From the UHGV virus genome UHGV-0134280: a DNA stretch of 39,537 nt; one strand, given 5' to 3'. Source of the DNA: a virus. Each line of letters begins with the position of its first letter. The first letter of the stretch is position 1. A program made the translations under genes and the position numbers. Of this stretch, positions 10,344 through 35,601 are shown one piece after another. Under the pieces are notes generated by a model. That model saw only the letters and a list, made by a program, of their open reading frames with translations. It was not told where the DNA came from and did no database searches.

Positions 10344-12818
10344 TTATTGCGGAGTGACATCCTGTGGTCGCCACCAGTATGTCTGGTTAAACTCTTTCTT
10401 CGAACGTTGCTCCATTTTACGCAAATAACCTGGTGAAAAATACTCCTGCATCTGGTTAAAGATCATGTGATCGAGAGCCGCCTTCAAGTACCAGAGATTC
10501 GCACCTGGCATCAGACCTTTCCCCAGCTTAACCAGATCACCACCAGTCTGCTCACTCTTCCCTTCCACAGCATTTAACGGTATGCCCTGAGCAATCTTCA
10601 CTACGTCATCAACCAGACCAGCTACCGGGCCAAGCATCGACGCCAGCGCGCCGCTTCCGTACCTAGTGTGATCTGACAATAAAAAGTCACCGTAAAGGCC
10701 AAGACCACCACCTTTCAGTAGAGCACCAAGCCAAAATTTAGCAGCATCTTCTCCTGTCATCTCGCGAGGATTACGACCAGACGCAAGGTCGTTAAGTTGC
10801 TGCGACAAAGCGCCAAGAATGGTCGTACTGGCAATAAACGTCGCAATATATGCCGCACGCCCACCAGCAGACGGCATACCCATAGCGCGTGACCAGTGAC
10901 GCATAACCACCGAGATAGGGAACGATTTAAACAGGAAAACACTTCTCGTTAATTCACCTTTCCATGTTCCACGCTGAATACCAGAACCGGTTATCAGTTG
11001 CTCACGTGCTCCCGGTGTAATAACAGCCATATCAACTTCTTCAGTTATGGCACCGAGCAGTTTACGCATTGCCTCAAATTTCACGCGTTCAGGCTCACCA
11101 AGATGTTTAACTGCTGAATCAGGGATACGCATAATGCTTTCCGGTGTCAGCATCGTATTATTGCCGTTCCCCCAGTCCTCCTGTTGCGCCAGCTTCCATA
11201 CGCTCCAGTCTGTGTCAGTAATCCCTTTGCTTTTCAGGATGCGAAAATCAGAATCATCGAGGCTACGAAGGTCTGGTGTCCGTGACACTACTTCTCCCAA
11301 GCTTCCCATCATGGTTACGCCATAGGCGCGCTTGTGCGCATCTGACCATGCTGTAAGCCCACTGGCACGCATTACCGCCGTTGCAGCCCAACGAGACACA
11401 GACGGCCCCATATTATCCATCGCCCAGCGGTTAACGCTGCCAAGTAGAGATTCCATCGCCAGACCAGCGCGGCGCGCCCGCGCAAGTTCTGTACGGTTCG
11501 TTGGGTCCATAGCTTCAAGCTGGTTGCGGAATAACTGGTTCATTGGAAGGTTGGTCACCTTCGCAGACAGATACATGGTTCCAAGATCAGAGAACGATGA
11601 CAGCAACGCGGATCCGAGTCTGCTGGCAACCAGCCAGTTGCGGATATTGTCAGACCATCGCGCGATGTGCGGATTCGCTACAGGCTGTGTCTTTCCGGAA
11701 ATAAAGTTGTACAGATTCTCTGTGTTGTTCGCCAGCCGCTCGACTTTACCGGTTTTACTCGGGTTAGCTGTTGCCGTTTCTGCCTTCACCTGATCAAGAA
11801 GAGAGCGGAAAACATGATCGGGGTTTGGGCCATATGTTTCCACCAGTGCAATATCTTTACTGATACCTTCCAGGTGACCGACCATGATTTCCCATAGAGA
11901 GCGATCGCCATAAAGTTGCTGATATTGCAGATAGGAATCTGCATCTTTGAAATGTATCTGTCGTGATGTATTACCACGGTTAGCACGTGCGCCTGAAATT
12001 CGCATTCCGGTATCAGTAAGCTTATTCAGCCCACCAGTAGCGATCGTGTTATAAGCCTCTCCAAGAAATGCAGACAACTCGGAATCGTTCATCAGTTGTC
12101 CATCGGCTCGGATATAATATTTGCGATCCAGCTTACCTATAACATCGCTAACCCACTTATCCTTTGATACCGCCCCAACCTTTTCCATAGAATGATGTTG
12201 AGGGATTCCCCAGTTTTCGAGATAGCCAATGTCCCCACCAGCATCATTAAACCGGCGGCGCAGTAGATCTGTCACTTCTCTCCACGCCTTAGCACCTTTT
12301 CTTGCTTTAGCATTGCCAGTATTTTGCCCTCGCATTTCATATACCAGGTCACGCACGCCAGCTTCATCTTCAAACAGGCCAAAAAAGCGAGGATCAACTG
12401 CTTCAAATGCCTCTTGCAATTGACTCAATGCATAATCACGAGTGGCTTTTGTTCTGGACTCAACAGAGAGGAAATTCGATTTACCGTCTGCATTAAAAGC
12501 AATAGTACGGTTAAGAGCGCCAAGTTTCCCATCAGCCCCTTGATAGCTATTGATAAATTTATCCAATCTCTGACGTGCGGATATAGTGAGGGCCACACGA
12601 CGTTTCTTTAATGCCGCTTCTCGCTGTAATTCTTCAGATGCCAATTGTGCTGCACGATATAGCCGCTCTGATTCGGAAAGTTGTCTCCACGACATCGGGT
12701 CATCACGAGCAATGGAGCGCATATTTCGATAAATGCGGTCTTCAATGTTCTGTATTTCTCGCGCCGTTAACGTGCGCTGCGCCGCCTGCTGGACCGCTTG
12801 TATACATTCCTGTCTCAT
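10344..12818 (-). CDS. Internal virion/ejection protein (T7 gp16-like, C-terminal part)
   Basis: 824 aa; called by size and position in the gp13-gp16-like block upstream of the tailspike. Confidence 0.5.
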   Translation of the reverse strand: MRQECIQAVQQAAQRTLTAREIQNIEDRIYRNMRSIARDDPMSWRQLSESERLYRAAQLASEELQREAALKKRRVALTISARQRLDKFINSYQGADGKLGALNRTIAFNADGKSNFLSVESRTKATRDYALSQLQEAFEAVDPRFFGLFEDEAGVRDLVYEMRGQNTGNAKARKGAKAWREVTDLLRRRFNDAGGDIGYLENWGIPQHHSMEKVGAVSKDKWVSDVIGKLDRKYYIRADGQLMNDSELSAFLGEAYNTIATGGLNKLTDTGMRISGARANRGNTSRQIHFKDADSYLQYQQLYGDRSLWEIMVGHLEGISKDIALVETYGPNPDHVFRSLLDQVKAETATANPSKTGKVERLANNTENLYNFISGKTQPVANPHIARWSDNIRNWLVASRLGSALLSSFSDLGTMYLSAKVTNLPMNQLFRNQLEAMDPTNRTELARARRAGLAMESLLGSVNRWAMDNMGPSVSRWAATAVMRASGLTAWSDAHKRAYGVTMMGSLGEVVSRTPDLRSLDDSDFRILKSKGITDTDWSVWKLAQQEDWGNGNNTMLTPESIMRIPDSAVKHLGEPERVKFEAMRKLLGAITEEVDMAVITPGAREQLITGSGIQRGTWKGELTRSVFLFKSFPISVVMRHWSRAMGMPSAGGRAAYIATFIASTTILGALSQQLNDLASGRNPREMTGEDAAKFWLGALLKGGGLGLYGDFLLSDHTRYGSGALASMLGPVAGLVDDVVKIAQGIPLNAVEGKSEQTGGDLVKLGKGLMPGANLWYLKAALDHMIFNQMQEYFSPGYLRKMEQRSKKEFNQTYWWRPQDVTPQ

Positions 12819-12823
12819 TTAAT

Positions 12824-14626
12824 TTAACCTCTCAAGAAACACGCCACAGCGACATCAAACAGGCTGGAATCCTGTATTGCCTGCTCACTTTCCCTGTTCG
12901 CTTCATCCAGTACTTCACGCGCGCTGCGCGATTGTGGATTACCATCATCATCCAGCACGGTGATTATCATGTCAGGTGATTCAAGCAGCGAGTCTTCAGC
13001 TATGCGCAGATCAATATCTCCTGCCTGATCCGCCATCATTTTTTGTTCTGCCTGTTGCAATATTTTATCAGGCTCAAAAGGAGCTACTTCGTCTGGCGTC
13101 CTGACCTCTGCTGTTTTATAGAATGAAACAGCCTGAGCATTAAGTTCACTTTCTACCTGCAGTCGCCGTGCCAGTTCTGCTCGAGCTTCAAAAAACTGAC
13201 CGCCAGGCTCATGCGGTGCCAACGCGTTACGAGAAAATTCCAGGCGTTCTTGTGCCTGCCTGATTCGTTGGTCAATATCGCGAAGTCTGGCCTGTTTATC
13301 TGATCGAGCACGAGATAAAGCCTTACCGCTACCGGTTGGATCTTCTGCAAGAATTTGTGCGCGCTGTTCAGTGAGATTTTCAATAATTCGTTGGCTATTA
13401 GCGATTTCAGACTGGTAAACCTGTCTATCGCCACGCGGCAAAAGCTGTGCGGCCTGTTCTTCAAGCAACCGATTTTCTATAGCGCGCGCCGTTACTCCAT
13501 CATCTACAGATGACAGAGCCTCATTAACTGCCTGAGACAGCAGACTCTTGCGCCCAGGAATTTCACTGAAAGATGCAGACTCAACAATGCTGGCAACGTC
13601 TACAGGTCTCCCCTGGCTAACATCAGACATGGCTTTTCGCAGAGCCTGAATGTGTGAATTACGCGAAAGCACGTTGATCGGCACGCCGGGAGCAATATCA
13701 ATTTCAGCATGATGAGCGGCATTCGCCGCCAGTGCAGCATCGATATCAACTGGTGAAAAATTTGGTGCGCTTGTAGACTCGCCGCGAGAGTTAATAAATC
13801 TGCCGACACCACCAAACGCCACCCCAAGAACAGCATCAATAGCAATTGCCTGTCGATCCAACACATCATACTGGTTAGCCATTTCGCTATAGCCACCATC
13901 ACGAAGCGTTTTAGCAGTAAGCCCACGCTGTGCCATACCGAACGCAATATTTGTACCTGCGGCATAGGCAATATCTGGCGTTGCACGTACTGCTGTTGCT
14001 GCGGCGCGTCGCACTGAACTTTCACCCGTCCGCGCAAGCTGAGCCGCCACACCTTCCGCCAGCGCACCACCCGCACGTAACCCGAGGCTCATAGGGATCA
14101 GTGTTCCGGCACCAGCAGTAATACCCTGCACTAATCCAGCTTCCTGCGCCGTCCTGAAATCAACACCCTGTGCTGTCAGCCGTTCAAACTCAGAAAAACC
14201 CTGTAGAGAAGTTACCGCCGCAGCACCTCCGACCGGACCACCGAGCGTTGTACCGACAACAGCCTGCCCGCCCATATCGAACAACCCATAAAGAACCTGC
14301 CCGGCGGTTCCGGTTGTCGCGGCATCAGGCGTCAGCCGCTTAACCTGCTGCTCTGCTAGTTTTCTCTGCTCGGCAATGTATGAAACTGAAGTATCATTGA
14401 GCGAGGTGTTTTCGTTAACAAACTGAGCAATCGGGGATACGATTTTATCCATCCCTGCCCATAGCAACTGATCTGGCTTTGCCACCAGCCCGGAGTACAA
14501 ACCAGACAATGCCGCTCCTACAGCATTGTCGAAAAAACCAACATCGCTGTTAAAACCAGCTGGATTTGATGCTGCTTCGTCAAGCTGCTGATTCTGGTTT
14601 ACTGGATTAAGGCCAAAGTAACTCAT
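12824..14626 (-). CDS. Internal virion protein (gp16-like, N-terminal part), Gly/Ala-rich
   Basis: 600 aa; Gly/Ala-rich hydrophobic segments and coiled coil; synteny only. Confidence 0.45.
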   Translation of the reverse strand: MSYFGLNPVNQNQQLDEAASNPAGFNSDVGFFDNAVGAALSGLYSGLVAKPDQLLWAGMDKIVSPIAQFVNENTSLNDTSVSYIAEQRKLAEQQVKRLTPDAATTGTAGQVLYGLFDMGGQAVVGTTLGGPVGGAAAVTSLQGFSEFERLTAQGVDFRTAQEAGLVQGITAGAGTLIPMSLGLRAGGALAEGVAAQLARTGESSVRRAAATAVRATPDIAYAAGTNIAFGMAQRGLTAKTLRDGGYSEMANQYDVLDRQAIAIDAVLGVAFGGVGRFINSRGESTSAPNFSPVDIDAALAANAAHHAEIDIAPGVPINVLSRNSHIQALRKAMSDVSQGRPVDVASIVESASFSEIPGRKSLLSQAVNEALSSVDDGVTARAIENRLLEEQAAQLLPRGDRQVYQSEIANSQRIIENLTEQRAQILAEDPTGSGKALSRARSDKQARLRDIDQRIRQAQERLEFSRNALAPHEPGGQFFEARAELARRLQVESELNAQAVSFYKTAEVRTPDEVAPFEPDKILQQAEQKMMADQAGDIDLRIAEDSLLESPDMIITVLDDDGNPQSRSAREVLDEANRESEQAIQDSSLFDVAVACFLRG

Positions 14627-17136
14627 TGCGGAATATCTCCGGAGAATCTCTGACGCTTCTGTGTCAGATCAAGAACAACGGGAGAACCATCATCTTTCAG
14701 CAGATAACCAGTACCAAGTTTCACCAGGTACTGACTATCGCCGTAACTTTGCAAACCATACTGACCAGGCGGTGTTTTTATCCCAGAGCCGACAACTTGT
14801 TCATTCCAAGCCTGATTAACCTGCTTATCGAATTGCTCTGCAGACATTCCCCACGGCAAAAGGACATTCCCCATTCCGTTATAGTCATGCACGCCACCTG
14901 TAGCTACGTTAACAGCCTGTTTCCAGACATCATTGTCAATTTCGCCTGATACCACGCCTTTTTTCGCCATCACACCAGCGTAATAATCCTTTGCGATCTC
15001 GTATGCCATTGATGCCCCCTGAGCGTCACCAGCAAATGCATCCTTCACCATGTCAGAAAACTCAAGGCGAAGATCAGCATCTTTAGGCATCGGAATACCT
15101 TTCGCATCATCAGTACCTTTACGAGCCGCCGCGCCAGCAAGAATTGTCTGCGCAGCGGTTTCAGGAGACACGGAAACATCCGGATTAAACCAGTTTTTTT
15201 CTGCCAAAATACCACCAGGCTTATCCATCAGTATCCCGGCAACGGCAGCAGATGGAGCGTTGGCACTGATCTGCTGTAGTGCTGACATATACACCTGCCC
15301 ACCACCAGTGCTCTGCCTGATGGTATCGAGATATGCTGCCTGTTGGGAAACTGGAGCATCACGAAAGAAAACACCGATCTGATTGGCCTCGTCTTTGGAA
15401 AAGAACGTCAGTGGAGTGCCATATGACTTAGCAAGGTCACTGACCTGAGCGGCACGCAAGGCAACGCTCTGTCCAAAGTTATCCTTATTGCTCATGTCGA
15501 TAGGCTTTGCCTGTCCGGAGGCAAGAGAGAACTGCACAGGATCCGACTGCCGCTGCTTTATCACCTGATTTGCAGCCGAAACAACGTTGTCATAAAGATC
15601 TGCGCGTGCCGCATACCCCTCCCCTGTCTCACCAGTATCCGGGCGTAATTGCTCAACATATGCTGTAATGCTGCTTGTCGGCATATTGCGGAAAGAGCCT
15701 ATATACTGTCCGGCGATCTGCGTATTTCTGAACTCGGTATATCGCAGGTTTCCTTCTCTGACGCCATAAGCTGCAATAAAATCAGCCTCACCAGGTGGGT
15801 TAGGAAATTCAACGCCACGCATATACGCAGCCGTCGCATCGCGAACCCGACTGTCAATCATCGTTTTATATTCAGCCTGCTGCTGCCGACGAAGTTGATC
15901 CGCCTGTCGCATAAAACTTGCCTGCGCCTCAGGAGATGCCGCATCGAATGCTGCATTACCGGTATAGCGTTTAGTGTTGGTTGGAATTGTTGATAAACCA
16001 AGTGCTGCACTGACACCAGCAGTTAACTGCTGATCACTGTATGGCTGGCTACCGTTCTCATGATGGATAATGGCTGCACAAAGCGCCTTCAGGGTATCAG
16101 GATTAGATGCATCGAGAGGCTCATCAGCAGAAACGCCAAGTTGTTCGCACACTGCTTTGATATACGACATAGTGTCATTTTTATCAGTAGGCGGTGCCCA
16201 GCGATTAATTATCTCGCTGACGGTATCAATACCCTGCCTCTGATACGACATCAGGTTTCGCCCTAATGCACGAATCCCGTGTTCAGGTGTTTCGAATTTA
16301 GCAAATCGACCATCATCACCGGTCTGGCCTACCCACGGATTAGTTTTGCTGTATTCGAGATTTCCTGGGTTATTGTTGCGTATGCCACGGGCACTATCGG
16401 AAGAGTCACTATCGGCTACAGCACGGCGAGCTCCAGCAGCAGTATCACTTAACTCGCCATTACTTTGGATGAATGCGGTCGCATTGTTTGCCGACCACTG
16501 GGACAATGCGGCATCAGCAACCTTCTCTTTAAACTCGATTTTCTTGGCCTGGATTTGCTCGTCGCTCCAGCCATGCGCAATGCCGTAATCCTCAATTTGC
16601 TGGAAAGTTTGCTTATTAGCCAGTACGTATGCGGCGTTGTCGCCATACAATGCTGCGGCATTTTTACCATTGTTCAGCAACGTCGCCTGAAACTGGCCTT
16701 CTTCGTAGGCTTTTATTTGCCCTATCTCGTGCCGCCCGGCCTGCGTAGTGAACTGAATACGCTGCTGCTGCGCCTGCTGCATGAAAGCATTACGAGCCTG
16801 TTCATCCGGCAGCGACATAGCCAGTTGTTCGATCTGAGCATCAAACTGCTGCGTATACTCCTGACCTTTTCCAATAGCATTTTTCCCTTTCAGGTTAAGC
16901 AAACCTGTTTCAGGGTTATTCAACAGATCGCTGCTTATCTGGCTTAAGCTAAGAGAAGCATCCTGAGCCATAGCAACATTCGCACGCTGTTTTGCCTGCG
17001 CAACAATACCTGCATATTGCTCTGCAACATCGCCAAGTACATCACCGACATTTGGTGTCTGAAACGATGAGAATCCCTGAGTCGAAATCCCTCTGCTCTG
17101 AACCTGACGGCCCGATGTTGTTGGTACAACTGGCAT
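14623..17136 (-). CDS. Internal virion protein (gp15-like)
   Basis: 837 aa; size and order; contains a conserved-looking RNNNPGNL segment of uncertain meaning. Confidence 0.45.
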   Translation of the reverse strand: MPVVPTTSGRQVQSRGISTQGFSSFQTPNVGDVLGDVAEQYAGIVAQAKQRANVAMAQDASLSLSQISSDLLNNPETGLLNLKGKNAIGKGQEYTQQFDAQIEQLAMSLPDEQARNAFMQQAQQQRIQFTTQAGRHEIGQIKAYEEGQFQATLLNNGKNAAALYGDNAAYVLANKQTFQQIEDYGIAHGWSDEQIQAKKIEFKEKVADAALSQWSANNATAFIQSNGELSDTAAGARRAVADSDSSDSARGIRNNNPGNLEYSKTNPWVGQTGDDGRFAKFETPEHGIRALGRNLMSYQRQGIDTVSEIINRWAPPTDKNDTMSYIKAVCEQLGVSADEPLDASNPDTLKALCAAIIHHENGSQPYSDQQLTAGVSAALGLSTIPTNTKRYTGNAAFDAASPEAQASFMRQADQLRRQQQAEYKTMIDSRVRDATAAYMRGVEFPNPPGEADFIAAYGVREGNLRYTEFRNTQIAGQYIGSFRNMPTSSITAYVEQLRPDTGETGEGYAARADLYDNVVSAANQVIKQRQSDPVQFSLASGQAKPIDMSNKDNFGQSVALRAAQVSDLAKSYGTPLTFFSKDEANQIGVFFRDAPVSQQAAYLDTIRQSTGGGQVYMSALQQISANAPSAAVAGILMDKPGGILAEKNWFNPDVSVSPETAAQTILAGAAARKGTDDAKGIPMPKDADLRLEFSDMVKDAFAGDAQGASMAYEIAKDYYAGVMAKKGVVSGEIDNDVWKQAVNVATGGVHDYNGMGNVLLPWGMSAEQFDKQVNQAWNEQVVGSGIKTPPGQYGLQSYGDSQYLVKLGTGYLLKDDGSPVVLDLTQKRQRFSGDIPQ

Positions 17137-17148
17137 CTTATTATCCCC

Positions 17149-17688
17149 TTATCGACCGGTTGGAGTGCCAACAGCAGCAGAAATCGGCGCAGCCTTCTGA
17201 GAGAACGGGCTCCACGTTCCGCCGCCCATCTGGTATGCACCGTATGCTTTTAGTGGTGCCGTTAACAAAGTGCTGGTCATCGATGATTTAGCAGCCGACT
17301 GAGCAGCAGCCCCCTGTGCCTGAGCATTCATTCCCTGAACCTGATACCCATATGCCTCACGCTGAGCATTATTCACTGTCGTTAACGCATCAAGAGTGCC
17401 GAACTGAGCATTATCCGCAAAAACGTCAAGAGCTGTTCCGCTACTTAATTCCGCACCGGTAGCCCCCATAGTGGCCGCCGCAGTACCTGAGCGTTGACGC
17501 ATTTCACGACGACGCTGATCCGCTTCAATATTCCCACGATTGATTGAATCCTGTGCCTGAGCTTCAGCAATTTCAGCATTCCGATCAGCTATGGCTGACT
17601 GGTATTTTGCCTGCTTGCTCTGGCTGTACATTGACGCGGCTGTGGATGCCACTGTGACGGCAACCAAAGCGATGGCTGGGTTACACAT
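17149..17688 (-). CDS. Internal virion protein (gp14-like)
   Basis: 179 aa, Ala/Gln-rich with hydrophobic N-terminus; synteny. Confidence 0.4.
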   Translation of the reverse strand: MCNPAIALVAVTVASTAASMYSQSKQAKYQSAIADRNAEIAEAQAQDSINRGNIEADQRRREMRQRSGTAAATMGATGAELSSGTALDVFADNAQFGTLDALTTVNNAQREAYGYQVQGMNAQAQGAAAQSAAKSSMTSTLLTAPLKAYGAYQMGGGTWSPFSQKAAPISAAVGTPTGR

Positions 17689-18152
17689 TATTTTCTCTCC
17701 ATGTGAAATCTGTGGAAATTAAGACCAAGAGCACCATAAGGCGCGGCTTCTTCAAGCCTAAATCCAAGCCAGTGGAGCCATGCTTTGGCAACATGGTTTC
17801 GCTCGTCGACGTAGTTTTCCAGGCGCGGATAAACTGCCAGCATCTGCTGCAATACAGGGCGGCAGTGGCGAAGAAATGTCTTCTGATATTTTTCAATATG
17901 GCTGGTACCGACCAGCCAGGGCGTACCATTGCCACCGATCATTGACGCCGGAGATACACCAAACATGGTTACCAGTTCTCCGTTCGCGAACCCTGACCAG
18001 GCCATAGTCGCAGTGCGAAGACCAACACGCAGCGCATCTTCGGTAGTCATCAGTGATACCGCATACAGTTCGTCAATATCAGCCTGACGAACATCCGGCA
18101 AAATCATCTGAAGATGCTCTTCGGTAGCGGGAATAATTTGAACGTCGATCAT
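17688..18152 (-). CDS. Small virion protein (gp13-like)
   Basis: 154 aa, overlapping stop/start with neighbours; synteny only. Confidence 0.35.
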   Translation of the reverse strand: MIDVQIIPATEEHLQMILPDVRQADIDELYAVSLMTTEDALRVGLRTATMAWSGFANGELVTMFGVSPASMIGGNGTPWLVGTSHIEKYQKTFLRHCRPVLQQMLAVYPRLENYVDERNHVAKAWLHWLGFRLEEAAPYGALGLNFHRFHMERK

Positions 18153-25791: not shown

Positions 25792-25805
25792 TTCAATGAC
25801 TCCGG

Positions 25806-26439: not shown

Positions 26440-26516
26440 GTGGCATTAGCTCAGCTGGACAGAGCAACCGCCTTCTAAGCGGTTGGTCGCAGGTTCGAAT
26501 CCTGCATGCCACGCCA
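26440..26516 (+). tRNA. tRNA-Arg (anticodon UCU)
   Basis: Cloverleaf folded by hand: 7-bp acceptor stem GTGGCAT/ATGCCAC, D-arm, anticodon loop CTTCTAA, T-loop TTCGAAT, discriminator G and encoded CCA. Confidence 0.85.
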
Positions 26517-26714
26517 GAATCACACCTAAGGACCGTGATGCCAGAAGTTCCAGGGGCTTGGCGGTGATGGTTTCCCTTGAAGGACTATCACCGCCCTTTT
26601 TACAGCAGGACGCCATTGCGATGACTTCATGCTGTAAACCCGTACAGCCACGGAAGGCAGAACCCATTGCTTCCAGTTCGCCCGGTTCGCCGGGCATTTT
26701 TTTAAGGTGAGATT

Positions 26715-27090: not shown

Positions 27091-27102
27091 GTGACATGTC
27101 AC
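27091..27102. repeat. 12-bp perfect palindrome GTGACATGTCAC (copy 2)
   Basis: Read directly; 5 bp after the stop of 26715..27086 and next to the terminator hairpin downstream of the large terminase gene. Confidence 0.7.
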
Positions 27103-27176: not shown

Positions 27177-28652
27177 TTAAGCATAGGGATCGTAATCTGT
27201 AATGGCCTTGCCTTGCTGGTTCTGCTGACCTGGAATTCGCAGACGCTTCGACACAGGGAAAGCAAACGTCAGCAATAGCGCATCGCCTTTACCAGGAGAA
27301 CGCCCAAGCCGCTCCTTGATATCTTCCTTCGGTTCGATAACGATTTTACCGTCCACTCGAACTTTGTACTCTGCCGCCGACAGGTCGTCCGCTGTTTCCT
27401 GGTCATCAAGCATGCCGCCCAGCCTCAGCCATGTCTTGCATGAGTTGAACATCTCCCCGCGCTTATTGAGCATCTGCGGGTCAGTAGACGCGCCACCGAA
27501 CGGAACAAGTTGCCATGTACGACCCCAGCCGTCACCGATTGACTTCAGACCAGTTCCGTAACCGAAGTCGATGAACACTGCGTCAGCCTGGTACTGGTCT
27601 TCAAAGTCAGCGATACGCTTCGCCATAATCAGATCGTCAGTAGTCTTGTTGCCAGTCCACAGCACCTTACTGTGCAGCCCCTGCCGCAGGTATATCACCG
27701 CGTCATCAACGCCTGAGTATGCCGGGTCAACGCCGATTATCACCGGAGCATGTGCAACCTGCGCAGCGGTTACCACCCGTTTCATTGCCTCATCAGTAAG
27801 ACCGGTAGGGATAAACTGCAATTCAGATGCATCAGGGAATATGCCGCGCACACGGATTTTAACGAAGTCGCTGTCTTCCCCGTAGTCATCAACCCATTTC
27901 TGCAACTGCTGTTTGTTAGTGCCTTCCACCGTCCGGCTGTCAATCTGCGCAGTTTTCCAGCGGTGTTTATATTTGCGGAAACATTCGCGGAAACGCCCGG
28001 TGTTACGTGTAGGGTTTCCGAACGCCACCCAGATAATCTCAGTGTCTTCGTCCGTAAGCGCACCCTCGGCAACTTCCCACACCAGATCGGCAATGTTGGA
28101 TGCTTCGTCGAATACCACGATGATGCGTTTGCGCTCGTTGTGTAGTCCGGCGAATGCCTCAGTGTTGTGCTCAGACCAGGGGATTGCGTCAGCTCGCCAC
28201 CGCTTGTCGTGCCCAGGATCATTGCTGTACATCGCGGTAGCGGTACAGGTAAACCAGTCTTTCGTGATAGCAAGGTTCGACCACTTGATAATTTCCGGCC
28301 AGGTCTTCGTTCGTAGCTGGTTGTCGGTGTTGGCGGTCACCACGACCTTACAATCCTCGCAAGTGGACATGCCCCAGTTGATCAGCATTGAGATGAATGC
28401 GGATTTACCAATACCGTGACCAGAAGCGCGTGCCAGCATAAGCGGCTGATAACGCGTCTCTGGATTCTGCAGGTGATCACGTATCTCTCGGAACGCATCG
28501 GCCTGCCACTGACGTGGACCGGTAGCATGTGCCAGTTCAGTCCCCTCTTCCCCCCAAGGGAACGCATAGAGGGCATAGCCAAGCGGATCGTGAGTGAACC
28601 CTGCAATATCCTCGATCAACTGCTCTTCAGGAGATAACGCTGTATCTGTCAC
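27177..28652 (-). CDS. Terminase large subunit
   Basis: 491 aa; Walker A-like GHGIGKS near the N-terminus; overlapping stop/start with the small subunit gene. Confidence 0.85.
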   Translation of the reverse strand: MTDTALSPEEQLIEDIAGFTHDPLGYALYAFPWGEEGTELAHATGPRQWQADAFREIRDHLQNPETRYQPLMLARASGHGIGKSAFISMLINWGMSTCEDCKVVVTANTDNQLRTKTWPEIIKWSNLAITKDWFTCTATAMYSNDPGHDKRWRADAIPWSEHNTEAFAGLHNERKRIIVVFDEASNIADLVWEVAEGALTDEDTEIIWVAFGNPTRNTGRFRECFRKYKHRWKTAQIDSRTVEGTNKQQLQKWVDDYGEDSDFVKIRVRGIFPDASELQFIPTGLTDEAMKRVVTAAQVAHAPVIIGVDPAYSGVDDAVIYLRQGLHSKVLWTGNKTTDDLIMAKRIADFEDQYQADAVFIDFGYGTGLKSIGDGWGRTWQLVPFGGASTDPQMLNKRGEMFNSCKTWLRLGGMLDDQETADDLSAAEYKVRVDGKIVIEPKEDIKERLGRSPGKGDALLLTFAFPVSKRLRIPGQQNQQGKAITDYDPYA

Positions 28653-29245
28653 TGATTACCATCCTGACGTTCTTTGAGTCGCTTCCTGGCTGCTGCTATG
28701 CGATCAGCAATTGTCACATTCACATTAACATCCAGACGTTCTTTGAACGCGTTGACATCAACATGCTTACCAATCAGCTCAAGGTTCTTCACCTTGTCAG
28801 GCCATTTAATTTTTTTGAGGATTGTCTCTATCGAATCCTCGTTCATGTTCATGATGGTCGATGACAGATCAAAGCCACTAAGCGTAGTGCGCCAGATTTT
28901 CGGCCACTCACGGATTGGTTTAAGGCTCCCATCGTCGTTGAGGATATCGATCACGTCCATCTGGTCGATCTCCACCAGGCGCATGAGAACGTAATCAGCA
29001 CTGACGCGCATTCGTTTGTTGCGCTCCTCCATCAACTCGGCAATCCGTTTTTGAATGCGTTCATCGCGCATCATGACACTGGCTTTAACTGCCGCTGTAT
29101 TTGGGGAGAATCCTGCGTTAATCGCAGCCTGAGTCTGGTTTTCAGGCGTTTTGATGTATGACTGGCAATAAGCCTCCTGCATTGCTGTGAGCGGCTTAAA
29201 TTGCGTTGATTTGCGTTTATAGGTTTTAGGTTCAGCAGGCATCAT
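28649..29245 (-). CDS. Terminase small subunit
   Basis: HTH-like segment QAAINAGFSPNTAA; start trimmed to ATGATG with GGTGG RBS because the track extension to 29323 runs through a terminator hairpin. Confidence 0.65.
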   Translation of the reverse strand: MMPAEPKTYKRKSTQFKPLTAMQEAYCQSYIKTPENQTQAAINAGFSPNTAAVKASVMMRDERIQKRIAELMEERNKRMRVSADYVLMRLVEIDQMDVIDILNDDGSLKPIREWPKIWRTTLSGFDLSSTIMNMNEDSIETILKKIKWPDKVKNLELIGKHVDVNAFKERLDVNVNVTIADRIAAARKRLKERQDGNQ

Positions 29246-29261
29246 AACCACCCTGGTAATT

Positions 29262-29278
29262 GTTACCGTTGTGGTAAT
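29262..29278. promoter_or_regulatory. 17-bp palindrome gTTACC-GTTGT-GGTAAT (site J) with an extra GGTAAT half-site at 29255-29260
   Basis: Read directly; between the terminator at 29286-29314 and the small terminase RBS. Confidence 0.5.
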
Positions 29279-29285
29279 AGTACCA

Positions 29286-29314
29286 TGCAAAATAAAGCCG
29301 CCATAGTTGGCGGC
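29286..29314 (-). terminator. Rho-independent terminator gccgcca/tggcggc upstream of the terminase genes
   Basis: 7-bp GC stem with 4-nt loop; on the minus-strand transcript it is followed by UUUAUUUUG. Confidence 0.55.
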
Positions 29315-29355
29315 AGTATTCAAAACCCATCAAATTCATCATGCATAATCTACTC

Positions 29356-29367
29356 GTGACATGTCAC
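29356..29367. repeat. 12-bp perfect palindrome GTGACATGTCAC (copy 3)
   Basis: Read directly; overlaps the stop codon of 29364..29705, about 40 bp upstream of the terminator before the small terminase gene. Confidence 0.7.
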
Positions 29368-29705
29368 ACTATTAATTTAGTTTCATGCCAGCCTTTAGTC
29401 ACCCAGCATTGTGAGTCACCATTACACGGGCATGAATTCACAGGAACTCTCTCGCCGCACTTACCGCAACGTTTTCTGCTGATCGATTTTATACGCCCGT
29501 GCACGCGAGCATCATCCTGGCGGATAAGTAACGCAATATACTCACCAAATTCGTAAGGCACACGCCCGGGGCGACGCGTGGCACAGTTACGCTCCAGCAT
29601 TTCAATTTCCTGAGCATCAAGCACAATCTCCAGCTTACGTACACCGGATGCAGCTTGTCTGGCTCTCTGAGCGGCTTTGCGCTCTGCTGCTGATTTAGCC
29701 ATCAA
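29364..29705 (-). CDS. Small basic protein with C-terminal Cys cluster (possible zinc-ribbon regulator)
   Basis: 113 aa; KRCGKCG...CPCNGDSQC motif; last gene before the terminator that precedes the late operon. Confidence 0.4.
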   Translation of the reverse strand: MMAKSAAERKAAQRARQAASGVRKLEIVLDAQEIEMLERNCATRRPGRVPYEFGEYIALLIRQDDARVHGRIKSISRKRCGKCGERVPVNSCPCNGDSQCWVTKGWHETKLIV

Positions 29706-30015: not shown

Positions 30016-31000
30016 TACCTTTATCCCAGATGGATTTTATGGTCGTCCACGTGACTGGTACTTTAATTTCAATTCGTCCGCTCCCGTCACAGGTATCGCA
30101 ATCATCATCGCCAAAGCATTCCGGGCAGCTTATAAACGTAGTTTCTGAAAATTCACCGGATAGCACACCCTTAGCGCCGTTCTCAGCGGTTAGTTTCTTC
30201 GGCACCATAACCCAACCATCCGGAGTTACCGGAAGCGAGAACGGCAGCACATCTCTGTGAACAAGTTTTTGCTGTGACAGGTTATCCAGAACTTTCTGTA
30301 CTGCTGCATCACCGAATACACCAAGCGCATCTGCCATAACTCCTACAACCTGATAAGCCTCAGCGCATACCGTGGATAAACCATCCGGAATTACCGGAGA
30401 GTTGCCTGCCAGTCTACGCAAAACAGCCTTAACAGCCTCAATACGGTCATCATCGCAACTTTCCAGCGTATCTATGCGATCGAGCATGATGATGGCGTTA
30501 TCAATATCAGGATTGCCGGTCCACTCATTACCGCGATTGGATTCGGCAGCCTGGTTGCCGCGTACTGGTTGATTCTCGGCTTTACCCAGTCTGTCGTTGC
30601 TGCATGAATGCCCTTCCAGCCAGGCCAATGCTTGTCGCATGAAATACGCAATATGTTTGCCGTGGTAATCGTCTTCATCTATGTGAAAAGCGATACTGCG
30701 AATGTATTCAATTGCATTTTCAATAGCCTCCAACGCTATCGGCGCTGGCGGCGCAGCGAATAGATATCCGCCAAAATCAGGAAGCTCTCCAATGGCCTGT
30801 ACGAACTTTTGTTTGCCTACGTCAATTCCTAATGGGTAGTGAGCTATAATCTTTGCCACTGGCTCTGCTTCCAGCGATGCCAGAGCAATTCGTGCCAGTT
30901 CTTCCGCTTCTTCTGCTGGCAGTACAACGTTGCTACCAGGTCCGTATGTTTCGCGCCACTGCTTGATTGTCAGCAGGCGTTCTTTGGTAATAGTGGTCAT
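29969..31000 (-). CDS. Hypothetical protein with C-terminal DnaJ-type zinc finger
   Basis: C-terminal CPEC...CDTCDGSG; start trimmed to MTTITKE with AAGGAGAG RBS (track start 31081). Confidence 0.45.
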   Translation of the reverse strand: MTTITKERLLTIKQWRETYGPGSNVVLPAEEAEELARIALASLEAEPVAKIIAHYPLGIDVGKQKFVQAIGELPDFGGYLFAAPPAPIALEAIENAIEYIRSIAFHIDEDDYHGKHIAYFMRQALAWLEGHSCSNDRLGKAENQPVRGNQAAESNRGNEWTGNPDIDNAIIMLDRIDTLESCDDDRIEAVKAVLRRLAGNSPVIPDGLSTVCAEAYQVVGVMADALGVFGDAAVQKVLDNLSQQKLVHRDVLPFSLPVTPDGWVMVPKKLTAENGAKGVLSGEFSETTFISCPECFGDDDCDTCDGSGRIEIKVPVTWTTIKSIWDKGIAHFAAKPPQEVNRG

Positions 31001-31095
31001 CTCACTCTCCTTTGATGCGAATACCAGCGGCGCGTGGCACATTAACTTCCACGATGCGCACTGTTGGTTTGTACATCTCAATCGCTGTCAGCCAG

Positions 31096-31533
31096 TCAGC
31101 TCCTGTCATGCGCTTTTCCGCAACCAGTAAAACCAGATACAACGACCAGAACTTCACCTTTGGCTGGTTTTATTTCCCGTGCTTCCAGTTCTGCAATGCG
31201 CTTACTTCCATCCGAGATAACGCCCTCGTAATACTCACGCTGCTCGTTGAGTTTTGATTTTGCCAACTCCAGTTGTTTTGTTAGTTCTGCAATACGACAA
31301 ACATCGTTGATACGCGTTTCCTCTAATGCGTTGCTCTCATCCAGTAGCGCCAGCACGGTTTCTGGTCCGGCCAGAAATTTGAAGGCGTTGAGGGCATCAA
31401 TATCAACACCGCTATCTTTAAGTTCCTGTTCGCTTATCAGATCATCATCAACTGGCAACATTAACAGGCGTTCCATTGCTGGAGTTGCACGTTCTGCCGC
31501 CTCACGTAGTGCCTGGTAATTAATTTCGCTCAC
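31096..31533 (-). CDS. Ead/Ea22-like protein
   Basis: N-terminus MSEINYQALREAAERATP resembles lambdoid Ea22-like proteins; from memory. Confidence 0.45.
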   Translation of the reverse strand: MSEINYQALREAAERATPAMERLLMLPVDDDLISEQELKDSGVDIDALNAFKFLAGPETVLALLDESNALEETRINDVCRIAELTKQLELAKSKLNEQREYYEGVISDGSKRIAELEAREIKPAKGEVLVVVSGFTGCGKAHDRS

Positions 31534-32144
31534 TGGTTGCCTCCTTTGCGAAGCTGGGCAGCAAAGTCAACTAACCACTCAGTCATTTCAACCTTCCCTA
31601 CCAGGTCTGAACCAGGGTGCATACAGCAATCACTCTGCGCCGCTTTGAAATCCTTATACTCATATTCTTGGACCACCAGATTTTTTGCAGCTTCTATAGC
31701 AGCATCCACCCCCTGCGCCCGCACTTCAGACAGGAAAGCATCAGTGGCTGGAATGGGCTTTTGTGGTGATATAGCAATGCGAATTGTCTCAAGGTCTGGA
31801 TCTGTTTCCGCTGCTGGCACCTTGATATAACCCATCTGCACCCCATTCATGATGAACCTGCGACGGTCATCACATATCGCCTTTAGCCCCGCACTCTCCG
31901 CTGCCAGCGCCGAAAACTTCTCGTGTGCCAACTTAACAGCCGAATCAGCCTGCTTAATTGACTCAATCGCTTTCTGCTGGTCTTCGGCCAGCGCATTAGC
32001 ACGCACCAGTTGCACTTCCAGTTGCGTTGCCAAATCGCTGATCAGCTTTGCCACACTGCGCATATCAACGGCACCACATTCTGCTTTCAGTTCCGAAGCC
32101 ATCTCATGCCCGGCGGAAACTAACCCTTTGATATTACTTTCCAT
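31530..32144 (-). CDS. Hypothetical early protein, coiled-coil N-terminal half
   Basis: 204 aa; overlapping stop/start with the next gene. Confidence 0.35.
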   Translation of the reverse strand: MESNIKGLVSAGHEMASELKAECGAVDMRSVAKLISDLATQLEVQLVRANALAEDQQKAIESIKQADSAVKLAHEKFSALAAESAGLKAICDDRRRFIMNGVQMGYIKVPAAETDPDLETIRIAISPQKPIPATDAFLSEVRAQGVDAAIEAAKNLVVQEYEYKDFKAAQSDCCMHPGSDLVGKVEMTEWLVDFAAQLRKGGNQ

Positions 32145-32550: not shown

Positions 32551-32614
32551 AATTTCCCCCTGAGGTAATTAAAAACCACATAAGACACGAAATCAATAGA
32601 GTTTAGAATATTTT

Positions 32615-32631
32615 ATTACCTCACAGGTAAT
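32615..32631. promoter_or_regulatory. 17-bp palindrome ATTACC-TCACA-GGTAAT (site F, perfect)
   Basis: Read directly; between a weak terminator after the P-like gene and the nuclease gene promoter. Confidence 0.6.
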
Positions 32632-32667: not shown

Positions 32668-33468
32668 TTACTTGATAAATCCTGCCGCCTTTCCCCGCCT
32701 GTATTCCTCCATCAGCCACTGCGCCGGTGTTATTCCCCCAAGGGTGGCGGCGTTAGGCATGCACCCGAAACTTCGCCCTGGTGGATGGTAAACGTCTCTC
32801 CCTGTGTCCGGAGGCGTACTCATGGGTTCTGGCTTTGCCTGTATGCTGATCACCGGATCGGGTATCTGCTGTCCGGAAGCTACCTTTTTCGCCCAATCAT
32901 CGAGCAGCCTGCGCGCGTGTTTCTCAACCTCAATCTCGCTAAGCTGGCGCTGATACATTGCACGGCGGGTATCACATACGACCCAGTACATAACCGGATG
33001 TCGCCACGGGAATCTTTCGGGACCACCAGGATATAAACTTTTTTCCTTGCTGTACCGGTGAAACTCCGCCATCACATCGTCAATGGTGACGCCAAGAACC
33101 ATCTTGCTGTCTTTACACCACTTGATGAATTGCCCTGGCGACGGCCAGAACGGAGATTCACTGGCGCGGGCGTGGCGCATACCAGCAGAAACCTGTTCAC
33201 GGGTTCGGATCCCCCCTTCGGCAAACGCAGCAATCCACTGCTGTTTTGCAGCAACTTCCTGCTCTGGCGTCTTCAGGTTGGTTACTACTGCCGCCGGAAA
33301 CAGTTGTTTCAGCTGTTTGAAAAGGGCATCAACAAGCCTCTCTGCTGACATGTTCACCACATTGTCATTGTTGACGTACTGATGCTCATAACCTGACATG
33401 CGAGAAAGGGCTTCTCCGTCACGGTTTTGTATCGCGGTAAAAACGTTGTTCACAAGAAATCCTCCCAC
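32668..33468 (-). CDS. Replication protein P-like helicase loader
   Basis: Clear similarity to lambda P as recalled: QQWIAAFAEGGIRTREQVSAGMRHARASESPFWPSPGQFIKWC against EIRRQWVLAFRENGITTMEQVNAGMRVARRQNRPFLPSPGQFVAWC. Confidence 0.8.
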   Translation of the reverse strand: MGGFLVNNVFTAIQNRDGEALSRMSGYEHQYVNNDNVVNMSAERLVDALFKQLKQLFPAAVVTNLKTPEQEVAAKQQWIAAFAEGGIRTREQVSAGMRHARASESPFWPSPGQFIKWCKDSKMVLGVTIDDVMAEFHRYSKEKSLYPGGPERFPWRHPVMYWVVCDTRRAMYQRQLSEIEVEKHARRLLDDWAKKVASGQQIPDPVISIQAKPEPMSTPPDTGRDVYHPPGRSFGCMPNAATLGGITPAQWLMEEYRRGKAAGFIK

Positions 33469-34265
33469 GCTTCAGGGCTGTTCCAGTGCGGAACGTTGTT
33501 ATCAGGTAATGTTGATTGCTTCTGTCTGCTAATCTGCAGCCGCCTTGCCAGCTTCTGCTCCCACTGTGCCTGATGGTATGCCTTACCCTCAGCCATCCAG
33601 TAAATTCTGAACTCTGCAAGCTCCTGTGCCGTTGGCAGGCTGTCCAGGTAGATCCCCTGCAATGAGCTTTTCCGAAGAAAGTCATCTGATGGCTGCCATT
33701 GTTCATGCATGACAAATTTGCCTAATTGCCCTGGCCCACCAGGAGGAACAAAGTTATTCATCACGGCGTTGTTTGCGCCGGGGTCATGAGGCACAGAATC
33801 CCCGCTTTTTGTCCTGCTCTCCCTCTCTTGGTTAAATGACTGGTTATATGACTGGTTCTGGATCCCGTTTTTGGGATCATTCAACATCCCGTTTTTGGGA
33901 TCATTCAACATCCCGTTTTTGGGTATATTCCCGTTTTCGGTAACATTACCGTTTTCGGGTTCATTACCCCCTTCCCGGTTGCCTTTAATGTTCCCGTTTT
34001 TGGTTATATTAAGAGAGAAAACCCGCACTCTTTTCGTCGCACCCTTTCTCTCTCCGGTATCTGAAATAAGCCCCATTTTCATGAGCGATATAAGCCCGGC
34101 CTGCACGGTTTTTTTATTCAGGCAAGTGTCTTTAACGAGGCGTTCTATGCTGGGGTAGCAGAGGTTATATTCATCGGCTCTGTCAGCCATCGAGAGCAGT
34201 ATGAGCTTTAATGACGAGCTACCTGGATCTGTCTCCCAGGCCCAATCTGTTGCATGTCTGCTCAT
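33450..34265 (-). CDS. Replication initiator, O-like (N-terminal winged-HTH, iteron-encoded Asn/Gly-rich linker, DnaT-like C-terminal domain)
   Basis: Directly upstream of and overlapping the P-like gene; internal peptide repeats NGMLNDPKNG encoded by DNA iterons; GGAG RBS. Confidence 0.65.
   Translation of the reverse strand: MSRHATDWAWETDPGSSSLKLILLSMADRADEYNLCYPSIERLVKDTCLNKKTVQAGLISLMKMGLISDTGERKGATKRVRVFSLNITKNGNIKGNREGGNEPENGNVTENGNIPKNGMLNDPKNGMLNDPKNGIQNQSYNQSFNQERESRTKSGDSVPHDPGANNAVMNNFVPPGGPGQLGKFVMHEQWQPSDDFLRKSSLQGIYLDSLPTAQELAEFRIYWMAEGKAYHQAQWEQKLARRLQISRQKQSTLPDNNVPHWNSPEAWEDFL
33861..34017. repeat. Candidate origin iterons (ATCCCGTTTTTGGGATCATTCAAC and variants, 5-6 copies)
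   Basis: Tandem near-identical repeats of about 24 bp inside the O-like gene, each with an internal dyad ATCCC...GGGAT; arrangement mirrors ori-lambda inside gene O. Confidence 0.6.
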
Positions 34266-34577: not shown

Positions 34578-34586
34578 AATAGATAT

Positions 34587-34631: not shown

Positions 34632-34862
34632 TCATGAGTAGAAGAAGTATGCCAGTTCTGCTTTTGAGCGCAGCCATTGTCTTGTTTTACAGGCTTTAAA
34701 AAGCCCATTCATCAATACCTTACCTGGCATTTTGCGCTTACCTGTTAAGTGAGTCTGGATATAGTGACTCGTCGTTCCGGCTTCCTGTGCGAAGGCTTCA
34801 CGCTCATCCGGAGTAAGTGCAAGCCAGTGCTTTTTGAAATCGAAATGTCCGTTATCGCTCAT
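34632..34862 (-). CDS. Cro-like HTH regulator (XRE family)
   Basis: 76 aa; HTH-like segment QEAGTTSHYIQTHLTGKRKMPG; first gene of the early operon divergent from the repressor. Confidence 0.55.
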   Translation of the reverse strand: MSDNGHFDFKKHWLALTPDEREAFAQEAGTTSHYIQTHLTGKRKMPGKVLMNGLFKACKTRQWLRSKAELAYFFYS

Positions 34863-34906
34863 AGCTATTGCCTGATATTTATTTCAGATAATAAATATTC
34901 ACCCAT

Positions 34907-34961
34907 AAGGTAACAAAAATCAAGGATAGTTACCTATGAGGTGCATTTACCTGTTGGGTAA
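34907..34961. promoter_or_regulatory. Operator array in the divergent immunity region (overlapping TTACC/GGTAA sites K and L plus a half-site)
   Basis: AGGTAAC at 34907-34913, TTACC-TATGA-GGTgc at 34929-34945, TTACC-TGTTG-GGTAAT at 34945-34961; between the Cro-like start (34862) and repressor start (35017). Confidence 0.55.
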
Positions 34962-35016
34962 TATTGCTTTAAATTGAATCATCTACTGATTCATATATGA
35001 GGCGATTTTCCAGAAA

Positions 35017-35601
35017 ATGAAAAGTATCCAGGACGTCCGCAGGCAAAATCTCAACGACTTGATCGACCGTGAATTCAATGGTGTTCAGACGCGGATGGCA
35101 GAAAAACTTGGAACTCAGGCAAATCTGGTAAACCGCTGGGCTCTTGGCAAGAAGGTTATCGGCGACCAGGTTGCGCGAAAAATTGAAGCTGCCGCCAATA
35201 AACCCCGTAACTGGCTTGATATCGATCGCTCGCTTTCTCAGGAAGGTTTTCAGCCTGTCGGCCCAAGCGACATTGGTCAGCTGGCGGCTCACAACCTGGA
35301 ACGCTGGATGAGCGAAAGCCGCGACCTTTCAACACAGGGAAAACTTCACCGCGCATCCGGCGTCGCCCAGGTAACAATCAGCCGCCTGTTAAACAATGAG
35401 GTCAGCGTTTCCATTTCCACCCTGGAGAATGTTGCATCCGCATTCGGGCGTCACGGCTATGAATTACTGATTCACCCGCACGACCCTGCGACCATCAACT
35501 ATGACCGCTCGCGCTACGCATTGTTACCCGAAACCGAGAAAGCAAAGATCGAAAGTTACATTGAATTTGTCATCAACCAGAACGAAAAAAATAAACAATA
35601 A
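35017..35601 (+). CDS. Immunity repressor candidate with two XRE-type HTH domains and no S24 peptidase domain
   Basis: HTH-like segments around residues 20-55 and 105-150; no LexA-like Ser/Lys autocleavage module seen; no obvious RBS (possibly leaderless). Confidence 0.65.
   Translation: MKSIQDVRRQNLNDLIDREFNGVQTRMAEKLGTQANLVNRWALGKKVIGDQVARKIEAAANKPRNWLDIDRSLSQEGFQPVGPSDIGQLAAHNLERWMSESRDLSTQGKLHRASGVAQVTISRLLNNEVSVSISTLENVASAFGRHGYELLIHPHDPATINYDRSRYALLPETEKAKIESYIEFVINQNEKNKQ

Follow-up and report, generated by a model that had tools for sequence, protein, structure and literature searches.

The stretch of viral DNA analyzed here, UHGV virus genome UHGV-0134280 (39,537 nucleotides, referred to below as the window), carries the virion, lysis, immunity and replication genes of a temperate podovirus next to a short piece of bacterial chromosome (Table 1). 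The window almost certainly consists of about 37.8 kb (1718–39537) of a Uetakevirus prophage of about 39.4 kb, that is, a member of the epsilon15/phiV10 group, and of 1.7 kb of Escherichia coli chromosome. An original prediction for positions 10344–35601 had described a temperate podovirus, of a kind much less characterized than lytic T7-like phages, as a mosaic of a T7-like (Autographiviridae-type) virion module and a lambdoid regulatory and replication module. The temperate podovirus was borne out, whereas whole-genome comparison revealed the standard Uetakevirus plan, as in epsilon15, phiV10, phiv142-3, ZX5 and Tyrion. The phage is thus of an already known kind, a temperate E. coli phage with the ordinary plan of its genus, and not a new mosaic.

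Table 1. Features of the window, their positions and the basis of their assignment.
Feature	Position	Strand	Basis
Host chromosomal genes yfgG, yfgH (552–1070) and yfgI (1086–1625)	1–1717	+	PGAP names in VR50 and GPEC403; Pfam Gly-zipper, DUF5384
attR core AATCATTCCCACTCAAT, copy of the guaA 3' end	1718–1734		17-bp direct repeat at both prophage ends in VR50
Rz-like DUF2514 protein	1845–2327	-	PF10721
GH19 endolysin	2324–2953	-	PF00182; end by homology to the 630-bp gene of VR50; mechanical open reading frame to 3118
Holin	2943–3251	-	PF05449/PF16931 for the holin pair
Holin-like membrane protein	3238–3642	-	PF05449/PF16931 for the holin pair
Tailspike, 1039 amino acids (anchor, residues 1 to ~230; K1 endosialidase; C-terminal chaperone)	3949–7068	-	Pfam End_beta_propel 5e-233 and related domains
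LexA box TACTGTATAAATATACAGT	7225–7243	+	Conserved in epsilon15, Tyrion, phiV10, phiv142-3, VR50, GPEC403
85-amino-acid gene, epsilon15 gp19 homologue, C-terminal domain common to antirepressors	7264–7521	+	phrog_450, phrog_1760
242-amino-acid open reading frame between tailspike and ant region	7544–8272	-	phrog_6762; weak endonuclease VII-like and Lar-like matches
IsrK RNA	8437–8513	+	Rfam, 74.7 bits, above gathering threshold
C4 antisense RNA	8532–8619	+	Rfam, 78.6 bits, above gathering threshold
Bro-N/Ant antirepressor	8623–9360	+	PF02498; phrog_130 Ant
Epsilon15 gp17 homologue, 824 amino acids, internal/ejection protein	10344–12818	-	28% identity, E 3e-109, full length; phrog_684
gp16-like internal protein	12824–14626	-	PHROGs; epsilon15 annotation
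gp15-like internal protein, lytic transglycosylase domain	14623–17136	-	PHROGs; PDB 9vvp_L Gp29, 3.3e-38, residues 249–398; epsilon15 annotation
gp14-like internal virion protein	17149–17688	-	PF24072 T7_gp14, 32.8 bits (cut-off 27); phrog_418/phrog_308 for the gp14-/gp13-like pair
gp13-like internal virion protein	17688–18152	-	phrog_418/phrog_308 for the gp14-/gp13-like pair; PF11090 T7_Gp13 only at E 0.077
Tail nozzle (gp12-like)	18152–20623	-	PDB 8CK1 Carin-1 'Tail Nozzle', 1.2e-217
Tail adaptor (gp11-like, 201 amino acids)	20623–21228	-	PDB 8CK1 Carin-1 connector, 4e-26
Site of absent 324-bp gp10 'capsid staple' gene	21229–21235		Junction 21203–21264
gp9-like gene	21285–21629	-	Between cement gene and gp10-less junction
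Bbp16-family cement protein	21631–22068	-	PF21190, 1.7e-46
Epsilon15-type major capsid protein	22120–23112	-	PF20911 GP7, 2.1e-149
Protease or scaffold	23121–23822	-	phrog_458 'protease'; PGAP and RefSeq protease/peptidase
Bbp19	23819–24115	-	PF25181
T7-family portal	24112–25791	-	PF12236, 1.3e-187
gp3	25806–26012	-	Within the 23121–26012 block
tRNA-Arg(TCT), antisense to late genes, in the 1.1-kb terL–gp3 gap	26440–26516	+	ARAGORN; Rfam
Large terminase (terL)	27177–28652	-	phrog_2
Small terminase (terS)	28649–29245	-	phrog_51; PF03592 Terminase_2
Late control region	29245–29367	-	Palindrome, promoter-like site, terminator and two operator-like sites, in that minus-strand order
Two operator-like sites	29277–29245	-	Ahead of terS
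Intrinsic terminator hairpin GCCGCCAACTATGGCGGC then TTTATTTTG	29314–29297	-	Between gp49-family gene and terS
Promoter-like site (GTGACA, 18 nt, CATGAT)	29367–29338	-	-35 hexamer within palindrome
Palindrome GTGACATGTCAC, containing the regulator gene's TGA	29367–29356	-	Perfect, 12 bp
Epsilon15 gp49-family small regulator, 113 amino acids, Cys-rich C-terminus	29364–29705	-	phrog_536 'transcriptional regulator'
Lambda P homologue	32668–33468	-	PF06992, 1.5e-56
HTH_36 + DnaT-domain replication initiator	33450–34265	-	Pfam; no match to the lambda O family
Six iterons inside the initiator gene	33863–34010		Repeat analysis
Cro-like gene, divergent from repressor	34632–34862	-	phiV10, epsilon15 annotations
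OR operator-like sites	34899–34961		TTACC-N5-GGTAA motif
Repressor with two helix-turn-helix motifs	35017–35601	+	phiV10, epsilon15 annotations
OL operator-like sites	35659–35735		TTACC-N5-GGTAA motif
YqaJ exonuclease	36206–37105	+	Pfam
RecT	37115–38137	+	Pfam
AlpA/Xis-like gene	38187–38435	+	Pfam
PerC-like activator, MT-A70 methylase	to 39487, within 36206–39487	+	Pfam; integrase past window

Identity and integration site of the prophage

When positions 10344–35300 were compared by megablast with 50,697 phage records, the Escherichia phages phiv142-3 and PAS61 covered 88% of the query at 98.1% identity, the O157 typing phages 9 and 10 covered 85%, and phiV10 covered 73% at 98% identity; the virion genes of Salmonella phage epsilon15 were about 77% identical to those of the window. 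All of these phages are classified in the genus Uetakevirus, and the genome-wide nucleotide identity, with further matches on both arms, places the window in the same genus. The gene order is that of Uetakevirus as well: terS–terL, portal, protease, capsid, cement proteins, gp11–gp17, tailspike, lysis genes and int, and then the early-left genes, repressor/cro, the replication genes and a gp49-type regulator. Gene by gene, the window could be matched to epsilon15, phiV10, Tyrion and phiv142-3, with gp10 as the sole missing gene and int lying outside the window.

The prophage of E. coli VR50 is collinear with the window, 97.4–99.7% identical in blocks, and it continues beyond the right end of the window with a DUF1382 gene, a tyrosine integrase gene and then guaA. 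Thus, the window holds the complete prophage except for the DUF1382 gene, int and attL. At the other end, the similarity to phage genomes starts at position 1718, which aligns with base 1 of the phiv142-3 record, and the insertion lies at the 3' end of guaA. The first 1.7 kb have a match in every one of the 5426 complete genomes of E. coli. The recombination/methylase arm (35600–39537) is matched in 565 of these genomes, and the left arm with the endosialidase tailspike was found in 68, the listed sources of which are humans, chickens and other poultry. In E. coli GPEC403-625 (NZ_CM142769.1, 1417500–1465500), a second endosialidase gene and lysis cassette stand directly past the integrase gene, which would fit either a tandem pair of such prophages or an artefact of the assembly.

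Some observations weigh against this account. In the patches 17025–17684, 26719–27084 and 30233–31882, the window is unlike every sequenced relative, and gp10 is missing; no single phage described so far is therefore identical to it. Additionally, no match in Pfam, NCBIfam or the PDB sequences was obtained for the large terminase and the gp16- and gp17-type proteins, whose roles are therefore assigned from PHROGs, synteny and the literature. More generally, NCBIfam held no family for ten virion and regulator proteins, none of the large terminase, the gp17 homologue and the gp49-like regulator was matched by a sequence in the PDB, and Pfam searches at E values up to 10 came up empty with the gp11- and gp12-like proteins and yielded only noise with the large terminase and the gp49-family regulator. 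Relative to the nearest relatives, the divergent patches comprise part of gp14 (the first of the three), a plus-strand open reading frame beside a copy of the palindrome described below (the second), the nin-like region (the third), and the recombination genes (36209–38134). Such patches are ordinary module shuffling within the genus.

The absence of gp10 could also mark a defective prophage remnant that has lost its capsid staple. The 324-bp gene is present in VR50, phiv142-3, phiV10, epsilon15 and Tyrion, and in the window it is cleanly gone, with a few bases instead. We consider a remnant rather unlikely, as exactly the same junction without gp10 recurs in 68 of the 5426 complete genomes of E. 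coli and also in Escherichia phage EC.W1-9, whose sequence was deposited as that of a phage and which is reported to have been isolated as one; furthermore, the other structural open reading frames of the window are all intact, and the Bbp16-type cement gene is kept. The recurrence of the junction in these genomes and in EC.W1-9 suggests instead that a natural lineage does without gp10 while retaining the Bbp16-type cement gene.

Affinities of the virion, tailspike and lysis genes

The prophage is truly, if remotely, related to T7, and the relationship is limited to its portal, its tail and its ejection apparatus. The T7-type portal and the internal core protein gp14, both expected of Autographiviridae, are present: T7 gp8, used as a control, matched the same PF12236 model as the portal of the window (2.8e-113), and T7 gp14 matched PF24072. 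In the same set of controls, T7 gp17 matched PF03906 and T7 gp10A matched PF21703. The Tube (PF17212, gp11) and Phage_nozzle (PF25675, gp12) families of T7 found no match in the window even at E values up to 10. When an AlphaFold model of the adaptor (predicted local distance difference test score, pLDDT, 85.8) was searched with Foldseek, the Carin-1 connector (7.6e-17) and LME-1 were followed by T7 gp11 (7BOX, 8.5e-7, template modeling (TM) score 0.58) and by many other T7-type adaptors. Since the gp11- and gp12-like proteins match in fold or match the Carin-1 parts but do not match the Pfam families, they are homologous parts that lie outside the T7 sequence families.

These T7 affinities bear on the possibility that the window is a novel or poorly characterized mosaic, in which an Autographiviridae virion module was joined to a lambdoid control and replication module. 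The T7 Pfam families of the portal and gp14 and the T7-type fold of the gp11-like adaptor, with the probable T7-type fold of the fibre anchor, are in its favor, and the window does contain lambda P, iterons, a RecT module and a pair of repressor and Cro-like genes. A further point in its favor is Bordetella phage BPP-1, in which the same virion module is accompanied by a different early module (T7-like DNA polymerase and Gp2.5-like single-stranded DNA-binding protein). Because BPP-1 joins the same virion module to another early module, deep mosaicism is real. Nevertheless, a novel mosaic is very unlikely here, as a named genus, sequenced repeatedly since epsilon15 and phiV10, has this very combination as its fixed architecture. 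The capsid protein belongs to PF20911 (epsilon15 GP7) and not to PF21703 as in T7, and the Bbp16 cement protein, Bbp19 and the Terminase_2-type small terminase are likewise non-T7 traits; in place of the T7-type capsid, terminase and replication genes, the window has PF20911, PF03592, and lambda P with a DnaT-domain initiator. No N, Q or lambda-O-family gene was detected, and no recent high-identity donor from the T7 group was seen, while the architecture does occur in other genomes.

Pairwise comparison points in the same direction. In phmmer searches of 17 virion proteins of the window against the virion proteins of T7 and P22, nothing was significant, the best E values against T7 proteins being 0.003–0.013 in a tiny database; position-consistent traces were confined to portal/gp8 (0.0046), gp14/gp14 (0.013) and gp13/gp13 (0.077). 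Profiles of 3–4 sequences (window, epsilon15, Tyrion and BPP-1), aligned by hhalign with single T7 or P22 proteins, were too shallow and gave nothing significant, only gp13 appearing with T7 gp13 at a probability of 27.8. Hardies et al. (2016, PMC4819975) linked epsilon15 gp12 to T7 gp12 and epsilon15 gp17, their IVP-D, to its counterpart T7 gp16, found homologues of IVP-A/B, and grouped the epsilon15 terminase and capsid with those of siphoviruses. With our shallow-profile hhalign, their links for gp12 and gp17, which came from comparing hidden Markov models, were not reproduced. Names given in RefSeq and by PGAP are already linked to T7, such as 'HHpred: 3j4b_A Tail tubular protein A {T7}' and 'virion core protein, T7 gp14 family'.

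The homology to T7 virion proteins that the original prediction proposed to check is thus visible in the portal and gp14 families and in the adaptor fold, and absent from pairwise searches. An Autographiviridae-type virion did not hold, given the different capsid, cement proteins and small terminase, and gp11 and gp12 outside the T7 Pfam families. From its parts list, the portal, the capsid gene, the gp11/gp12-like tail and the internal proteins are present; the labels 'scaffold' and 'fibre' did not hold as given. PHROGs, PGAP and RefSeq call the supposed scaffold a protease or peptidase, and the supposed fibre gene (10344–12818) encodes the homologue of the epsilon15 gp17 ejection protein, the probable T7-type anchor being on the tailspike, outside the range considered. 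The run of internal core proteins was confirmed, with five internal/ejection-protein genes in a row (10344–18152) and not four. By family and fold, the virion is a combination: its capsid is of the epsilon15/BPP-1 type, with Bbp16 as cement, and its portal belongs to the T7 family, as do by type the gp11-like adaptor, the gp12-like nozzle and the internal ejection proteins, which are of gp13–gp17 type.

Residues 1–165 of the tailspike are 72% identical to epsilon15 gp20, and residues 1–227 are 92% identical to the phiv142-3 fibre. PF03906 matched residues 1–230 below threshold (20.6 bits as against a cut-off of 25.2; E 3.8e-4). Foldseek with a model of residues 1–180 (mean pLDDT 70) retrieved, at E ≤ 0.001, only the N-termini of fibres from T7-type tails, including those of T7 gp17 (8DSP, 7EY9, 7BOZ), PhiM1 and Carin-1, at low TM scores (0.37–0.45 on the query). 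The N-terminus is accordingly modeled as a T7 gp17-type fold. A conserved-domain match has been reported for the tail protein of the Uetakevirus ZX5, described as a T7-like N-terminus, an endosialidase and a C-terminal chaperone (PMC9782041). Host recognition in the phage of the window would rely on the T7 gp17-type anchor and the K1-capsule endosialidase, and judging by these domains the phage should therefore target K1 strains.

The bases 3978–6370, encoding the tailspike from about residue 233, are 99.1% identical to the endosialidase gene of the P22-like phage CUS-3, a recent exchange of a receptor-binding module between two groups of podoviruses. This identity, an antirepressor region that lies between the ejection-protein genes and the tailspike gene, where P22 has immI, and Ead/Ea22- and Eae-like genes would all favor a P22-like podovirus (Lederbergvirus). 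The probability of that is close to nil: P22_portal, P22_Tail-4, Phage_stabilise and P22_gp7 (PF16510, PF11650, PF11134 and PF25688) had no match in the window, whereas P22 proteins matched all four; the P22 gp4 chain was absent from the top 50 Foldseek matches of the adaptor model; and the tailspike resembles that of CUS-3 only from about residue 233 on, which is a swap of the receptor-binding module. A better fit of the virion proteins to P22, the outcome that the original prediction had named as contrary to its T7-like reading, was therefore not found.

The lysis cassette spans 1845–3642 on the minus strand, after the tailspike gene. The open reading frame between the tailspike and ant region is transcribed in the direction of the late genes. 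Two plus-strand terminator-like hairpins (26560–26595 and 26680–26695) follow the tRNA-Arg(TCT) gene, and the phiv142-3 record places its tRNA on the other strand.

Transcription, immunity and late control

The prediction that no phage RNA polymerase is encoded was upheld. With T7 RNA polymerase as the tblastn query, the best E value was 1.4 in the window and 2.1 in the VR50 locus including both flanks, and the four open reading frames of more than 800 amino acids encode the nozzle, two internal proteins and the tailspike, all of them virion proteins. The T7 promoter consensus was not found in the window at up to 3 mismatches, nor was any dispersed promoter-like repeat, the iteron array being the only multi-copy repeat there; the complete circular record of phiv142-3 (54 features) lists no RNA polymerase either. 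The prediction would have been contradicted by a polymerase gene immediately past the window, but in VR50 there is none, the flank consisting of DUF1382, int and guaA. The single-subunit RNA polymerase and promoters of its own that are expected of Autographiviridae are thus lacking. In a phage without a polymerase gene, all transcription would be performed by the host enzyme, in agreement with the predicted dependence of the late genes on it.

The early region is only loosely lambdoid. As the original prediction held, it contains a divergent repressor/cro pair, lambda P, iterons, YqaJ–RecT and an Xis-like gene; its 'O' is an HTH_36 and DnaT-domain protein outside the lambda O family, its repressor has two helix-turn-helix motifs, and no early open reading frame matched an N or Q family in Pfam or PHROGs. 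An N/Q cascade was not found, nor do the lysis genes precede the head genes; they follow the tailspike, and the antirepressor control resembles the immI of P1 and P22. Judging by the families assigned, replication uses a DnaT-domain initiator whose gene contains the iterons, together with a helicase loader of the lambda P type. The YqaJ/RecT pair is closest to that of epsilon15 (about 80% identity), and GPEC403 has Bet and a PD-(D/E)XK nuclease.

The motif TTACC-N5-GGTAA occurs in the window in 14 copies (10 exact and 4 with one mismatch), compared with 0.68 expected. The copies lie at 7173, 8293, 8386, 9434, 26103, 29245–29277, 32554–32630, 34562, 34899–34961 and 35659–35735, that is, at OR and OL and ahead of terS, gp3, the tailspike gene, ant and the nin-like genes, and so at essentially every transcription unit. 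In epsilon15, the exact copies are the sites that its record annotates as 'repressor'. As the motif heads each unit, we infer direct repression of every operon, the late ones included, and not a lambda-style cascade: the repressor with two helix-turn-helix motifs probably silences every transcription unit directly at these putative operators.

No S24 peptidase domain was detectable in the repressor. A consensus LexA box stands about 20 nucleotides upstream of the 85-amino-acid gene with the antirepressor-type domain, and together with a repressor lacking a detectable peptidase domain this suggests SOS induction through a small antirepressor. The IsrK and C4 RNAs directly upstream of ant are predicted to exert P1/P7 immI-type control. 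Antirepression is the likely route of induction, with the LexA-box small gene or the Bro-N/Ant gene behind the C4 and IsrK RNAs as candidates, as far as can be judged from sequence.

The terminator that the original prediction had placed before the small terminase gene is indeed there, and the late genes lie behind it. It is nearly invariant in epsilon15, Tyrion and phiV10, and it is annotated in the epsilon15 and phiV10 records. The palindrome upstream of it has three exact copies in the window (10175–10186, 27091–27102 and 29356–29367), and every copy is located at one of the late-operon boundaries, next to a terminator hairpin. In epsilon15, Tyrion and phiV10, the copy that follows terL and the one that closes the late operon are likewise free of mismatches. 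Of the copy preceding terS, an exact version is present in epsilon15, phiv142-3 and VR50; in Tyrion this copy spans the end of the record, and in phiV10 it differs at one position. The palindrome is absent from T7, P22 and BPP-1.

Homologues of the gp49-family regulator occur in temperate phages of the N15-like group, in ZF40, and in Yersinia and Vibrio phages. In unrelated temperate phages, the palindrome or a related one overlaps or adjoins the stop codon of that homologue: it is exact in ZF40 and takes the form GTGACTGGTCAC in phiKO2 and GTGACAGGTCAC in a Vibrio phage; near the homologue in a Yersinia or an Aeromonas case it was not found. As phiKO2 has a separate Q-like gene too, the gp49 family is not Q itself. 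In the literature searched, we found neither the palindrome sequence nor an explanation of how the late genes are switched on in these phages, which have no N, Q or polymerase of their own.

We tentatively propose, as a possibility to which we would not yet give even odds, that the gp49-family protein and GTGAC-NN-GTCAC form a previously undescribed regulator–site pair controlling late transcription. Such a pair may act by Q-like antitermination through a protein unrelated to Q, by activation of a late promoter, or by insulation of the late operon. The layout is compatible with the antitermination suggested by the original prediction; a separate late promoter between the terminator and terS, under the two operator-like sites there, is equally possible. 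In P22, gene 23, P-late and t-late have a similar layout of gene, promoter and terminator, the terminator being at +30 to +58 in P22 and, counted from the promoter-like site, at about +17 to +42 here. The CRP consensus has a half-site spacing of 6. CRP was considered as the binder of TGTGA-CATG-TCACA and rejected, the spacing in the palindrome being 4.

Comparison with known phages

What the original prediction described is the known genome plan of epsilon15 and phiV10, and the kinship of its tail and injection apparatus with T7 was published in 2016. In practical terms, the window would represent a temperate phage that targets the K1 capsule, as its domains indicate. Worth recording are the gp10-less lineage, the antirepressor-like gene with its LexA box, the C4/IsrK–ant module, and the arrangement of regulator, palindrome and terminator; the conserved palindrome and the small regulator provide a concrete, testable hypothesis of late control.

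Among more distant phages, LUZ100 of Pseudomonas (PMC10134795) is a podovirus with temperate features that belongs to Autographiviridae and has its own RNA polymerase, unlike the phage of the window. With T7, the prophage shares the Pfam families of the portal and gp14, the fold of the gp11 adaptor, probably that of the gp17 anchor, and the order of portal, capsid, gp11, gp12, gp13, gp14 and large internal proteins. It differs from T7 in being temperate and in lacking the RNA polymerase, the T7 promoters, T7-type replication genes and pairwise similarity, and its Terminase_2-type small terminase has no counterpart in the Pfam assignments of T7. BPP-1 (Rauchvirus) has, in the same order, a GP7-family capsid, Bbp16, Bbp19, the portal, a gp11-/gp12-like tail and a transglycosylase-bearing internal protein. 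Its T7-like DNA polymerase, helicase, primase and Gp2.5-like protein, as well as the diversity-generating retroelement acting on its fibre, are its own, and it has neither the palindrome nor the operator motif of the window.

The type member, epsilon15, is completely syntenic with the window between terS and gp17, and it also has the operator motif, the LexA box, the terminators and all three GTGACATGTCAC palindromes. It is only about 75–82% identical in nucleotide sequence, and in parts only, with gp17 at 28% identity, and it has O-antigen conversion genes, a different tailspike and gp10 of its own. The closest relatives are phiv142-3, PAS61, phiV10, the O157 typing phages 9 and 10 and the VR50 prophage, with 97–99.7% nucleotide identity over most of the prophage and the same gene order; the VR50 prophage also occupies the same yfgI–guaA insertion site. 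Within this group, the receptor-binding part of the tailspike is an endosialidase in the window and VR50 and has other specificities in phiV10 and phiv142-3, the recombination genes are YqaJ/RecT in the window and a RecE/RecT fusion or Bet in other relatives, and the nin-like region is patchy. Finally, the temperate Uetakevirus ZX5 (vB_EcoP_ZX5) covers positions 1718–9386 of the window at 97.1% identity, with the same tailspike design (PMC9782041), and it covers 83% of the rest of the window at 98% identity.

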